Below are positions 5,403 through 34,190 of a DNA stretch of 64,000 bases, in pieces. Origin of the DNA: Clostridia bacterium (GTDB taxonomy: Bacteria > Bacillota > Clostridia > Oscillospirales > CAG-272); contig JAGBEE010000042.1 of assembly GCA_017937135.1 (NCBI GenBank), forward strand, positions 11,885 to 75,884, given 5' to 3'. The position numbers were made by a program, and so were the translations under genes. Under the pieces are notes generated by a model. The model did not search any database, was not told the origin of the DNA, and saw only the letters and a list, made by a program, of their open reading frames with translations. Each line of letters starts with the position of its first letter. Positions within the stretch are counted from its first letter, which is position 1.

Positions 5403-5565
5403 ATGAAGCACACCTGCAGTGCATTAAGACACTTTGTTAATGAAGTCGGCTTCGCCTAATGAAGTCGCTTCGCTAATTATTTTGTGTGCTTCGCTTCATA
5501 CGAACGGAGTGAGTGCTTCATTGTTGCGTAGCAACTGCTTCATATTGACAAAGTCAATGCTTCAT
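5403..5565. repeat. Mirror array A: 4x ATGAAG-type then 4x GCTTCAT with hairpin spacers
   Basis: ATGAAG/ATTAAG at 5403, 5423, 5440, 5459; GCTTCAT at 5493, 5515, 5537, 5559 (22-bp period). Confidence 0.85.
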
Positions 5566-5580
5566 TAAAAGGAGTAATTT

Positions 5581-5928
5581 ATGAAAGACGATAAATTATC
5601 AATACAGTCTATGGATTTTGCTGTATCAATTATTGAGCTTGTAAAAAGCTTAAAGGAAAAGCGAGAGTCTATAATTTCAAATCAAATCGGCAGAAGCGGT
5701 ACAAGCATTGGTGCAAACATTCGTGAAGCTCAATATGCACACGGAAAAGCAGATTTTATCGCAAAGCTTCAAATTGCTCTTAAAGAAGCAAATGAAACAG
5801 GCTATTGGCTTGAATTACTTTTTAGAACAAATTATATTGATGAAAGTACATATAAGTCACTAAACAATGCTTGCACAAGCATTCGTGTAATGCTAATTTC
5901 CTCTATAAATACATCAAAGCAAGGCTGA
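5581..5928 (+). CDS. Four helix bundle protein (23S rRNA IVS protein / bAvd-like family)
   Basis: QIGRSGTSIGANIREA...DFIAKLQIALKEANETGYWLELL family signature; AAAGGAG RBS. Confidence 0.92.
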   Translation: MKDDKLSIQSMDFAVSIIELVKSLKEKRESIISNQIGRSGTSIGANIREAQYAHGKADFIAKLQIALKEANETGYWLELLFRTNYIDESTYKSLNNACTSIRVMLISSINTSKQG

Positions 5929-19439: not shown

Positions 19440-20530
19440 TTTGCCTCCATATTTATTAGTTCTTTATATCTTAATTTTTTGGGAATTGATTTTTGCGCGC
19501 TAACGCTCTTTCCCTCGCTTATAAATGTATCAACCGCTTTTTGAACCTTGTTTAAATCGCTTTTGTCTGAATACAAAATAAGCATATCTACATCGTATTC
19601 CTTTTTGTCAAAGCATATTTTTTCTAAGAGATTTGTGTAAATAGCAAAGCCTACTCCGCTTGATGTCTTGCCCATTTTTTCAAGAAGCTTGTCGTATCTG
19701 CCACCAAAAAGCACGCTCTCAAATATGCCCTTTATAAATCCGTTGAATACTATTCCGTTATAGTAATTCATATCGTTTACTATTGAAAAGTCGATACGAA
19801 TATTGTCAAGGTCCTCTGTGCCCTCAAGCATTTTTATAAGCGACTTTAATTCATTTACTGCCAATTCAAGCTCATTATTAGCCTTGAAGCTATCAAGTCT
19901 TTCAAATACTGATTTTGGGCTACCATAAATGCCGACAAAGCTTGAAAGCATTTGCGCCTTTTCATCATCAACGCCATATTTTTGGCATATTGCGCTTATT
20001 TCGTGTGCGCTCTTCTTTTTTATACATTCAGCAATTTCACTCTTAAAATTATCATTTGCGCTTATGCTATTTAAAAGCGCAGACAATATTCCCATATGCG
20101 AAATCTCTAAAACATAGTCGCTTGAAACTGTATTTAAGGTCTTCATTGCAAGACAAAGCGTCTCGTACATATCGTATAGGTCAATATCACCTATACATTC
20201 AAGACCCATTTGCATAATTTCCTCAAATTCTCTTGTGTTTCCGGAAATTCTATATACATTTTCATTATAATATACCTTGTTTTTTATGCCCCTTGCATCG
20301 GATGCATTTTTAATAATTGACAAGGTTACGTCCGGCTTTAATGCAAGAAGCTTGCCATTTGTATCAGTGAAGGTTATTATACCGTCGCCAACTAAAAAAT
20401 CCTTGTTTTTTGCATATAGGTCATATTCCTCAAATTTATTCATCTTGTATGGAAGATAACCATACTTTGAATATAGTGAGCGTAATGCCACTATAATTTT
20501 TTCCTCACTCTTTAGGTATTTCTCTATCAT
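19436..20530 (-). CDS. hisZ: ATP phosphoribosyltransferase regulatory subunit
   Basis: HisRS-like: LKPDVT, YYNGIVF, GGRYD; adjacent to short hisG. Confidence 0.9.
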   Translation of the reverse strand: MIEKYLKSEEKIIVALRSLYSKYGYLPYKMNKFEEYDLYAKNKDFLVGDGIITFTDTNGKLLALKPDVTLSIIKNASDARGIKNKVYYNENVYRISGNTREFEEIMQMGLECIGDIDLYDMYETLCLAMKTLNTVSSDYVLEISHMGILSALLNSISANDNFKSEIAECIKKKSAHEISAICQKYGVDDEKAQMLSSFVGIYGSPKSVFERLDSFKANNELELAVNELKSLIKMLEGTEDLDNIRIDFSIVNDMNYYNGIVFNGFIKGIFESVLFGGRYDKLLEKMGKTSSGVGFAIYTNLLEKICFDKKEYDVDMLILYSDKSDLNKVQKAVDTFISEGKSVSAQKSIPKKLRYKELINMEAK

Positions 20531-20817
20531 TTCTTGCCCTCTAATCTATCAAGTATCATTGAATATCCACCGTTTCCATATTCAAGGCATCTATTAACTC
20601 GGCTAATTGTTGCTGTGCTCATGCCTGTTTCCTTTGTTATATCGGCATAGTTTGCGCCACTTCTTAGCATACTTGCTGCTTTAAGTCTTTGAGCTATTTC
20701 TAAAACCTCTTTTACTGTGCAGGCATCCTCGAAGAATTTATAGCACTCTTCTACTGAATTTAATGATAATATTGCTTCAAACAGCTTATCTACTGCTTCA
20801 TTATGCAATTTGTTCAT
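20527..20817 (-). CDS. yerC: YerC/YecD TrpR-like regulator (probable his operon repressor)
   Basis: ECYKFFEDACT..E...IAQR and STATISRV.RCL.YG motifs; first gene of the his operon. Confidence 0.88.
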   Translation of the reverse strand: MNKLHNEAVDKLFEAILSLNSVEECYKFFEDACTVKEVLEIAQRLKAASMLRSGANYADITKETGMSTATISRVNRCLEYGNGGYSMILDRLEGKK

Positions 20818-20860
20818 TTTATGCTCCTTTTTATCATTGGTAAAAAAATTTATGTTTTAA

Positions 20861-20908
20861 CGCTTTAGTGTACTAAAATATTATAATACTTTTATTTTAT
20901 ATTGTCAA
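20861..20908 (-). promoter_or_regulatory. his operon sigmaA promoter with adjacent palindromic operator
   Basis: Minus strand TTGACA (20908-20903)-17 bp-TATAAT (20885-20880), directly followed by TTTAGT-GT-ACTAAA. Confidence 0.8.
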
Positions 20909-20950
20909 TAGTTTATATTATATTTATGTAAGAAAAAACAGATGCACAAA

Positions 20951-21428
20951 TGCGTGTTATCCTTAACGGAGAACACGCAATGAATTGCAACCTTGCGGTT
21001 GCATGAATTGAAAGCTGTGCTTTCGTGAATTGCCTGCGGCATGAATTGTGCTTTACGGCACATTGGTTGCAATTCAATTCATGTGAGCGACGAATTGCAC
21101 AGCAATTCCGCGAGCAAATCATGGCGGAGCCAATTCATGATGCGTATGCATCAATTCATTCATAAAAACGAACAGAGCAAGAATAGAAGGAGGTTTATCC
21201 TTTCACTCTTGCTCTGTTAGTATAAAGTGATATTCTTTGCTGACGCAAAGAGTGATATTGTCGCACAGCGACAGTGATATTGAAGCCTTGTGGCTTCAGT
21301 GATATTCTATTCGCCCTAAACTTGCGTAGCAAATATAACTCGGCATAAGCCGAATATCACTGCGTAGCAATAGAACTCGCCAAAGGCGAATAGAGTTAGC
21401 GTGATACTCCGTTAAGAGTATCACGCTA
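20951..21428. repeat. Composite non-coding palindromic element: two mirror arrays, a central hairpin and related terminal hairpins in inverted orientation
   Basis: ATGAATTG-type x4 then CAATTCAT-type x4 (20980-21159); AGTGATATT x4 then AATATCACT-type x4 (21226-21397); end hairpins share CTTAACGGAG on opposite strands. Confidence 0.85.
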
Positions 21429-21446
21429 TTGTGCATCTGTTTTTAA

Positions 21447-21824
21447 TTATTTTATTACTGCAATAAGCTCAACCTCTACAAGCGCGCCCTTTGGTAAATC
21501 CTTTACTGCAACACAGCTTCTTGCTGGCTTTTGAGTAAAGTATTTTGCATAAACACCATTGAAGCTTGCAAAGTCGTTTATATCGTATAGGAAGCACGTA
21601 GTTTTTACTACATTTTCAAAGCTTGTGCCTGCTTCCTCTAAAACTGCGCCGAGGTTTTTCATAACCTGCTCAGTTTGCGCTTCAATATCGGTTGCTTCTA
21701 TATTTCCACTCTCTGGATTTATCGGAATTTGTCCTGAGGTATAAAGCATATTTCCACAAATTATCGCCTGTGAATATGGTCCTATTGCTCCAGGTGCTTT
21801 ATTTGTTGCTACTTTTTTTAACAT
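21447..21824 (-). CDS. ridA: RidA-family enamine/imine deaminase
   Basis: [26 protein letters not shown]. Confidence 0.93.
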
Positions 21825-21834
21825 ATTTCTCTCC

Positions 21835-23028
21835 TTATATAAGCTTAAAGCCAAATTCGGTAAGTGCCCTTTTTATTTGCTCTATATGGTCGTAATTTCT
21901 TGTTTCAAGCACTATTCTCAAATAGCATCCATTTACGTCTGAGCCCTCGTTTGCTCTTTCGTGGTGAACGGAAATTACATTACCACCAAGGTCAGCAATT
22001 ATACGTGAAACATTCTTTAATTGTCCCGGCTTGTCAGCAAGCTCTATCATAAACTGACATGTTCTTCCAGACATTAGAAGTCCTCTTTTTATTACTCTTG
22101 ACAAAATTGTAACATCTATGTTACCGCCTGAGAGCAAGCACACTACCTTTTTGCCCTTTATATCAAGCTTGCCAAACATTGCAGCGGCAACTGCTATTGC
22201 TCCAGCGCCCTCAGTAACAAGCTTTTGCTGCTCCATAAGTGCTAAGATAGCTGCTGAGATTTCATCATCAGTTACGCTAACTATATCGTCAACATATTTT
22301 TTGCAAATTTCGTATGTAAGATTACCAGGCTTTTTAACAGCGATACCATCAGCAATTGTTGAAACGCTTGAAAGCTCCTCGATTTGAGAATGCTTTACAG
22401 AGTTAAGCATAGATGGCGCTCCACTTGCCTGTACACCATAAACCTTAACCTTGGGGTTGAGCATTTTTATTGTGTAGGCAACGCCTGAGATAAGTCCTCC
22501 ACCACCTATTGGCACTATTACTGCGTCAAGGTCGGGAAGCTGGTCAATAAGCTCTAAGGCTATTGTGCCCTGTCCCGCTATAACGTCCTCATCATCAAAT
22601 GGATGAATAAAGGTATAGCCCTTCTCGTCACGGAGCTGAAGTGCTTTTTTGTATGCGTCATCATAAACACCCTCTACTAAGCATACCTCTGCGCCATAGC
22701 TTTTTGTTGCTTCAATTTTAGAAATTGGCGCTCCGTCGGGCAAGCAAATTACTGCCTTTATTCCGTTCTTTTGAGCTGAAAGAGCGACACCCTGTGCGTG
22801 ATTTCCTGCTGAGCAGGCTATAACGCCTCTTTCCTTTTCCTCTTGGCTAAGGCAAGACATTTTGTAGTAAGAGCCTCTTACCTTGAATGAGCCTGTTACC
22901 TGTAGGTTTTCTGTTTTAAGATAGATTTGCGCATCCTTTACGAGCTTTGGTGCGTAAATTACGTCTGTTTTACGAATTACGCCCTTTAATGCGTAGCTTG
23001 CGCGATATACGTTATCAAGTGTTAACAT
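21835..23028 (-). CDS. ilvA: Threonine ammonia-lyase with C-terminal ACT domain
   Basis: [40 protein letters not shown]. Confidence 0.95.
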
Positions 23029-33907: not shown

Positions 33908-34178
33908 TAAAATAAAATAGCCTCTTGATACAACACGCACCTATCGTATTGTAAAAAGAGACGAAGTATTCTCCGCGGTACCACTCTTAATTGGTGCTTT
34001 GCACCCACTCTGCGCCTTGTCTATCAACAAAGCCTCTCTGTAACGGGAGAGCCCGACCAAGCCTACTATTTTTCGGTTGGTAGCTCCGGGATGAGAATGT
34101 CTTTATAATCATACTGTCTTGCACCAACCGCCAGCTCTCTGAAATGATATTTGGGGACATATTTCCCTTCATCGCTTA
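33908..34178 (-). promoter_or_regulatory. T-box riboswitch, probably Leu (CUC specifier), leader of the leu-ilv operon
   Basis: Minus strand: AGAGAGC AG-box, GGTGCAA loop motif, CTC at 34095-34093, T-box AATTAAGAGTGGTACCGCG, then a hairpin with U-tract. Confidence 0.9.
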
Positions 34179-34190
34179 TATATATTATAT

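Follow-up and report, generated by a model that had tools for sequence, protein, structure and literature searches.

A Gut-1-variant mirror array in a ridA terminator of a gut Clostridia genome and its relation to arrays beside PF05635 genes

Introduction

The Gut-1 motif was found in 2010 in human gut metagenomes only and was described as a likely non-coding RNA, with neither a host nor a function (PMC2864571). Its consensus carries four (G/A)UGAAAU words, and the seed alignment in the supplement already includes rows with GUGAUAUU and CAGUUAUAUUCGCC (PMC2864571). Here we describe array C, a mirror array of short words and hairpin spacers at positions 21226-21397 of a 64,000-nt stretch of DNA from Clostridia bacterium (GTDB order Oscillospirales, CAG-272; assembly GCA_017937135.1, contig JAGBEE010000042.1, positions 11,885 to 75,884 of the forward strand), which is hereafter called the window and to which all positions refer. 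On balance, array C is best explained as a module of a self-folding non-coding repeat lodged in the terminator of a ridA gene, with arms that are variants of Gut-1 and with homology to arrays linked to PF05635 genes.

To our knowledge, Avd, an accessory factor of diversity-generating retroelements, is the only studied member of the very large PF05635 family. Avd works with a structured RNA. The intervening sequences of 23S rRNA take the place of a hairpin loop and are cleaved by RNase III, and pneumococcal BOX elements are intergenic repeats that pair with themselves and are built from modules, the internal ones varying in number. Some 23S rRNA genes contain large intervening sequences that are described as encoding the PF05635 family, which is homologous to Avd, and a pentamer of four-helix bundles is cited in the same source (PMC10053308). 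REPINs and REP sequences are moved by RAYT transposases (PMC3337134).

Layout of array C and the element around it

Array C is a non-coding repeat rather than a gene. It comprises four perfect copies of AGTGATATT on the plus strand (starts at 21226, 21251, 21273 and 21298; start-to-start distances of 25, 22 and 25, a period of 22-25 bp), separated by three spacers that are all hairpins (CTTTGC-TGAC-GCAAAG, GTCGC-ACA-GCGAC and GAAGCC-TTGT-GGCTTC). Four inverted copies follow at 21332 (AATATAACT), 21353 (AATATCACT, perfect), 21369 (AATAGAACT) and 21389 (AATAGAGTT). A preliminary description of the window had placed the four perfect words and their hairpin spacers exactly so, and it had noted that one spacer is common to array C and to the array near 5403; TTGCGTAGCAA indeed lies at 21322-21332 and again at about 5527. 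Exact AGTGATATT occurs six times on the two strands of the window, five of them at the array C locus, against 0.82 expected by chance (sd 0.94), and a count of at least six was reached in 0 of 100 shuffles.

Array C is one part of a 520-nt element (20929-21449) that lies in the 630-nt gap between ridA and a TrpR-like gene and is bounded by a 43-nt inverted repeat (20929-20971 with 21407-21449). The order within the element is end hairpin, mirror array B, central hairpin, mirror array C and end hairpin, as follows.

21226-21397: mirror array C, the array inside the element
21225-21310, plus strand: perfect arm of array C, four AGTGATATT copies with three hairpins; Gut-1-like (RF01706, 42.6 bits), with compensatory changes in all three stems
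21328-21398, minus strand: inverted arm of array C; Gut-1-like (RF01706, 39.4 bits), with variants kept in 58 arrays
21307-21315, plus strand: 5' strand of the long-range closing helix (CTATTCGCC), pairing with 21385-21393, with covariation
21385-21393, plus strand: 3' strand of the long-range closing helix (GGCGAATAG), with covariation and compensatory changes
20933-20949, no strand: A-run and left half of the ridA terminator stem (CAGATGCACAA), pairing with 21429-21439
20951-20979, no strand: left end hairpin with loop region CTTAACGGAG, an inverted repeat; this module bounds other copies too
20980-21165, no strand: mirror array B, ATGAATTG copies and then CAATTCAT copies with hairpin spacers, as direct and inverted repeats
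21168-21221, no strand: central hairpin module of 24 bp, which recurs in other copies and occurs alone in relatives
21397-21428, no strand: right end hairpin (TAGCGTGATACTC / GAGTATCACGCTA), found alone at 97-100% identity in many places in relatives
21429-21444, no strand: right half of the ridA terminator stem (TTGTGCATCTG) and T-run, pairing with the left half
21447-21854, minus strand: RidA-family gene (PF01042, domain match), whose terminator the element occupies
20527-20817, minus strand: TrpR-like gene (PF01371, domain match), first of the his cluster, with a 12/12 promoter match at 20908-20880

The two end hairpins (20951-20979 and 21397-21428) are inverted relative to each other. The element, folded as 531 nt, has a minimum energy of -227 kcal/mol on the plus strand and -222 on the minus strand, compared with -138 and -129 for shuffled sequences (z about -14), and the outermost stem, that of the terminator, is present in this minimum-energy fold.

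A variant class of Gut-1

The gathering cut-off of Rfam for Gut-1 RNA (RF01706) is 50 bits. An Rfam scan at gathering thresholds gave no match at the array C locus, both arms lying below the cut-off, and a permissive scan matched the two arms on opposite strands with the scores listed above. Both arms align over the full model (positions 1-77), which covers four purine-UGA-type words and three hairpins. In this genome there are 15 such matches, all below the cut-off (best 46.6 bits), yet the motif exceeds it in 39 of 50 genomes of the genus, where a single genome has as many as 52 matches and scores reach 88.1 bits. Arrays of relatives that score above it include those at locus L224 (65.3 and 51.5 bits) and locus L169 (52 bits). 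The arrays of the window are thus a variant class of the known Gut-1 motif.

With Gut-1 they have in common the four R-UGA-W-AU words, the three hairpins with covarying stems and the gut origin, and the stem covariation is found both in the alignment of 58 arrays described below and in the pairing of the spacers. The words of array C differ from the Gut-1 consensus in their GUGAUAU core. Furthermore, in contrast to Gut-1 as published, the arrays here reside in named bins of gut Clostridia, occur as inverted pairs in many copies, lie inside terminators and stand beside PF05635 genes. A literature search found no described link between Gut-1, PF05635/TIGR02436 and hairpin arrays, and none of these features in print.

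Hairpin pairing and the inverted arm

The spacers were examined in this genome and at 122 loci in other species, which together gave 241 distinct spacers of 10-18 nt between consecutive AGTGATATT copies. At least four outer base pairs are present in 199 of them, as against 3 of 241 after shuffling, and the stems begin with 77 different 4-nt sequences. Copies of the word are uniform within an array and the spacers vary. RNAalifold, applied to 58 aligned full mirror arrays from separate records, predicted 43 base pairs, 21 of which show compensatory changes.

The inverted arm was read in the preliminary description as four decaying copies, and only the positions of that reading stand. In the 58 arrays, which come from other genomes, the word variants of this arm are position-specific and conserved, and the arm is closed by a 9-bp helix, formed between xTATTCGCC, which follows the fourth perfect word, and a terminal GGCGAATAy. 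The outer pair of the closing helix covaries (AU in 24 arrays, UA in 18, CG in 14, other in 2), and the helix is 97.7% paired compared with 31-43% when slid; it competes with the last local hairpin (CGCC...GGCG). Because its variants are position-specific, conserved and helix-closed, the inverted arm is not an eroded copy of the perfect one.

One position of the inverted arm is almost invariably taken by the small hairpins GCGAAGC and GCGTAGC (21 and 14 of 46 parsed arms, respectively; window 21362-21368 and 21322-21332). The DNA form d(GCGAAGC) is a very stable mini-hairpin, which does not decide between RNA and DNA. At three loci in Butyrivibrio and other bins (L047, L048 and L049), five direct AGTGATATT copies stand without an inverted arm and are followed by a different hairpin, and at L048 two such direct-only arrays lie in tandem; a direct array can therefore exist without its mirror half.

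Terminator context

The element of the window is flanked by AAAAAACAGATGCACAA ... TTGTGCATCTGTTTTT. Flanks of other copies are likewise mutually inverted and are specific to the copy, with an A-run before or a T-run after. At the orthologous ridA gap, 30 loci of relatives were fetched, and both flanking genes were visible in 17; among the 17 genomes with both flanking genes, the element is present in this genome only. A plain terminator hairpin after ridA, together with the conserved his promoter, is seen in all seven of the shortest gaps (116-181 nt) and in several of the longer. The reverse case is a copy in the relative G001, which sits between GCACACC and GGTGTGC, 5' of a P-type ATPase gene, where this genome has a plain terminator. 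These comparisons suggest that the terminator hairpins were there first, that the element sits in their loops and that folding of the element re-forms the stem.

Other classes of repeat were considered for the element. A miniature inverted-repeat transposable element (MITE) was rejected: the ends are inverted, but the flanks are inverted, copy-specific terminator halves and not direct target-site duplications. A CRISPR array was rejected since the repeats are 9 nt, the spacers are palindromes of 10-18 nt and no cas gene is found among the neighbouring frames. An iteron or operator site array was also set aside, given the variable spacing and the neighbourhood of ridA and the his cluster.

Copy number and spread

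In this genome there are 12 clusters of at least three AGTGATATT-like words (one mismatch allowed), 10 of which have the array layout by inspection. Contigs of this genome (G000) start or end inside AGTGATATT arrays (C35:1-56, C4:1-56, C3:77-236 and C17:477-612, with C35 and C4 beginning identically), and since repeats break the assembly, the array copy numbers are lower bounds. A BLAST search of this genome with one copy of the element found about 20 places, including copies with other word classes (AATGATGT and AGTGATGT) that keep the scaffold of end hairpins and central hairpin. About 13 end hairpins were counted in this genome, array B has a second copy at C33:67.7k, and the end hairpin and the central hairpin each match alone in many places in relatives.

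Exact AGTGATATT arrays are present in 24 of 50 genomes of the genus, and matches to the element in 19 of 24 sampled genomes of the genus and in 6 of 16 other families of the order. Elsewhere, at least 122 AGTGATATT array loci were found among bins from the guts of animals and humans, with titles such as Oscillospiraceae, Acutalibacteraceae, Christensenellaceae and Butyrivibrio. The exact spacer triplet of the window recurs in G001, G011 (at least six copies), G017, G042, G051 and G062, as well as in metagenome-assembled genomes labelled as other families. Copies of the element in G017, G020 and G011 are 95-96% identical to that of the window over about 225 nt, compared with about 81% identity of the flanking TrpR-like protein between these species, and this difference would fit recent spread between species, although most of the records are metagenome bins. 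In a phage collection the one match was of 98 nt at 79% identity, and a plasmid collection gave no match. In a scan of viral contigs, one of 19 pattern matches (L228) is a true array and the other 18 are unrelated tandem or coding repeats.

Other GC-rich palindromic repeat modules (e.g., ...GGCTGTCGCATTAAGCGACGCC...) were seen in intergenic gaps of the genus, at L143, at L153 (the ridA gap) and in G000 at C17:147-470. They point to a set of hairpin modules in the genus that is wider than those studied here.

Arrays beside PF05635 four-helix-bundle genes

A second mirror array of the window, array A, stands directly before the sole PF05635 gene of this genome.

5403-5570, no strand: mirror array A (AATGAAGC / GCTTCATT class), flanked by a pair of tRNA genes and their terminator on one side and by the four-helix-bundle gene on the other
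5581-5928, plus strand: PF05635 / TIGR02436 four-helix-bundle gene (family matches), the only one in the genome

The last word of array A ends 4 nt before the ribosome-binding site of this gene, and as no separate promoter fits between the two, transcription of the gene probably starts further upstream and passes through the array. The closest solved relative of its protein is 2RLD (E 3.5e-34), an entry with five chains. In the genus, where genomes carry 0-7 PF05635 genes, the same layout recurs, with a tRNA gene, a terminator, a mirror array and a four-helix-bundle gene in that order. A tie to a particular tRNA was dropped, the tRNA identity differing by eye among loci of one class (Gln, His). 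Models of defence systems gave no match to the two four-helix-bundle proteins that were searched.

The linkage was quantified with 37 distinct PF05635 genes of the genus, each with 420 nt of upstream sequence, against a background of 2000 random 420-nt segments of this genome. A periodic array of at least three words lies directly 5' of 30 of the 37 genes, compared with 103 of the 2000 segments, and at least four words are found at 22 of 37 and 6 of 2000, respectively. The arrays fall into 13 word classes, each tied to one N-terminal sequence type of the protein. The preliminary description had proposed to test across genomes whether motif class tracks the clade of a four-helix-bundle or other neighbouring gene; copies in other genomes are plentiful, and on a tree of 30 proteins the 13 classes need 12 changes, the minimum possible, whereas 300 label shuffles need 21.8 on average and 18 at least. 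Its companion idea, that each class could pair with its own paralogue elsewhere in the genome, is only partly supported, class and clade matching across the genus and this genome having a single gene, of another class.

AGTGATATT arrays adjoin one protein clade, with the N-terminus MSNSILRDKSKDFAKQIV. The array B class (word ATGAATTG) lies 5' of a four-helix-bundle gene in the relative G048 (L217) and goes with its protein, and the canonical GUGAAAU goes with two further types. A mosaic pair of loci, L169 and L177, differs in its words and is identical in 16 of 30 N-terminal columns and 48 of 48 C-terminal columns of the protein, which indicates that the 5' half of the gene travels with its array. 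In several classes 4-18 nt separate the end of the last word from the ribosome-binding site or the start codon, so that the array must lie in the mRNA leader, and a role at the RNA level is thereby favoured. Seen from the side of the arrays, the association is weak: four-helix-bundle genes are present in the fetched flanks of only 6 of the 122 AGTGATATT loci in other species, and tRNA genes in 14. Among the best 150 Gut-1 matches listed, a coordinate cross-match placed 8 beside a PF05635 gene, at 5 loci.

At L170 (G004:C7) and at G003:C31, four-helix-bundle genes from the AGTGATATT-linked clade are interrupted by an in-frame stop or broken in two, and the arrays beside them are intact. These genes are possible pseudogenes.

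Comparison with other repeat systems

REPINs and REP sequences are similar to the element in being multi-copy, extragenic and non-autonomous, with two inverted hairpins around a spacer and a whole that folds into a larger hairpin, and the element has this layout of two inverted hairpin units in many extragenic copies. However, its ends are joined by long arrays of words, no Y1/RAYT gene is found in this genome, and the gene tied to the arrays encodes a four-helix-bundle protein and not a transposase. The 23S rRNA intervening sequences resemble the linked loci in that they, too, connect a PF05635 gene with a stable-RNA operon and with long inverted repeats. Here, by contrast, both arms of the repeat lie 5' of the gene, after tRNA genes, and the gene-less copies are in mRNA terminators, not in rRNA. 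With Avd, the superfamily of the protein is common to both, whereas this genome lacks a reverse transcriptase and no pair of template and variable repeats was seen in it. BOX elements were compared by description only; they are similarly modular and self-pairing, but their modules are not arrays of short words with free hairpin spacers.

A mechanism and its alternatives

Taken together, a passive and mobile copy of a protein-linked hairpin array is the most likely identity of array C in this genome, and what we infer of its function runs as follows. Arrays would have spread as gene-less copies into terminator hairpins, both within genomes and between species. Once inserted, the element would fold back on itself and rejoin the split terminator stem, and the insertion would be tolerated because this self-fold brings the two stem halves together. 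The ridA mRNA would then carry the array C copy at its 3' end. The conserved 9-mer may be the word that a class-specific reader recognises, the most plausible reader being the linked four-helix-bundle protein, and as this genome is without a reader of the AGTGATATT class, array C would most likely be a passive passenger. That nearly every gene has an array and few arrays have a gene resembles the autonomous and gene-less copies of mobile elements. The same asymmetry could arise from a regulator with many sites, and the mobile-element pattern is favoured over it because the classes of gene and arrays in this genome do not match.

Several results weigh against this account. Comparisons of filled and empty sites are between species (flanking protein about 80% identical), and none is an exact empty site in a near-identical strain. 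A mover is also wanting: searches of this genome, which is 93.7% complete, gave 0 matches for Y1/HUH transposases (PF01797) and no reverse transcriptase, and the one IS110-type candidate is a weak 30-bit match inside a 1477-aa frame that was taken as spurious. Most of the genomes are metagenome bins, in which repeats can be mis-binned or collapsed in assembly. As for the link to the protein, array C has ridA and the TrpR-like gene as neighbours and no adjacent four-helix-bundle gene; in architecture it agrees in full with the linked arrays, closing helix included. Moreover, the gene at 5581-5928 is of the ATGAAGC class and 61% identical to the AGTGATATT-linked clade, and that clade is absent from 15 of the 24 array-positive genomes of the genus. 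The match of class and clade may be plain linkage, since adjacent features are inherited together. In the variable stems there is no strand bias (G-U 13 against A-C 18 among 961 pairs), and in a census of loops the C-GNA-G and C-TNC-G triloops are mirrored on the two arms. With stems unbiased and loop types mirrored, RNA, single-stranded DNA and plain maintenance of palindromes cannot be told apart from sequence. As for transcription, three metatranscriptome runs contained 6% of the sampled words, and their contigs covered the element and not its flanks (depth of 70-1140 on the element and 0-14 on the flanks, without strand information); in a DNA run the excess from multiple copies is the same, at 16 against about 1000.

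A first alternative is that the dispersed arrays are working trans targets of a four-helix-bundle protein in this genome, tuning termination or mRNA stability at many 3' ends or acting as a protein sponge. It would account for the presence of arrays at nearly all genes of these subfamilies, for classes that are monophyletic on the protein tree, for the L169/L177 mosaic, for words that are uniform within an array among variable spacers and for the position of the array of the window's own gene in an mRNA leader. Even so, we regard it as unlikely, given that the sole PF05635 gene is of the ATGAAGC class, of which no dispersed array was found in this genome, that the dispersed arrays it does have (AGTGATATT, AATGATGT, ATGAATTG and others) are without a cognate gene, and that the cognate clade is missing from most array-positive genomes of the genus, as counted above. 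Somewhat more improbable is a free-standing, trans-acting small RNA with its own promoter, as Gut-1 was first proposed to be. Rfam files Gut-1 as gene/sRNA and Weinberg 2010 lists it as a likely non-coding RNA (PMC2864571), the covariation of the hairpins is strong and element-like sequence is abundant in RNA libraries. That abundance, however, mirrors the DNA copy number, and both arms score as Gut-1 on opposite strands, so that no single transcript is favoured. There is no conserved promoter before the arrays (in the window, only 9/12 hexamer matches, which lie inside the array), and dozens of copies occur per genome, many inside the terminators of other genes.

Binding of proteins to double-stranded DNA, with the array serving as iterons, operators or a centromere-like site, would find some support in the period noted above and in the AGTGATATT class, where by eye the array ends at or overlaps a promoter-like -35 of the four-helix-bundle gene. 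This explanation is very hard to credit, because the variation of spacer length over 10-18 nt leaves no fixed helical phase and palindromic spacers of free sequence have no role in binding to a duplex; in addition, no replication or partition gene is nearby, the neighbours being ridA and the his cluster, and the plasmid collection held no match. Finally, several array copies lie at contig ends, as would be expected of an assembly artefact, but the number of exact words was never reached by shuffling and an identical architecture is found in 58 arrays from separate records, which reduces the likelihood of a chance repeat or artefact to practically nothing.

Other features of the window

The leader of the TrpR-like/his promoter (window 20820-20915) contains a palindrome (TTTAGTGTACTAAA-like) that is kept in the gaps of relatives and may be an operator for the TrpR-like protein. 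A T-box leader on the minus strand at 33954-34181 (111.7 bits, cut-off 93) is unrelated to array C.

Significance

For the window itself the practical weight is modest, array C being a non-coding repeat that breaks assemblies. The element offers a clear case of a repeat that, by its own folding, would rebuild the hairpin it interrupts. Beyond the window, the orphan Gut-1 motif can now be assigned to identifiable gut Clostridia, as a multi-copy module of inverted pairs lodged in terminators. More tentatively, and with doubts that outweigh our confidence, Gut-1-type arrays may be the nucleic-acid ligands of stand-alone PF05635 proteins (known as the 23S rRNA intervening-sequence protein or Avd-like family), each clade recognising its own 8-9-nt word through the N-terminal helices, with one word per subunit of a ring oligomer. 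Such a two-part system would reside behind tRNA operons, and its gene-less copies, multiplied into the terminator hairpins of gut Clostridia, may place dozens of 3' ends under the control of the protein. Through the class-by-class match of word and protein, two unknowns, Gut-1 and PF05635, become one directly testable pairing.
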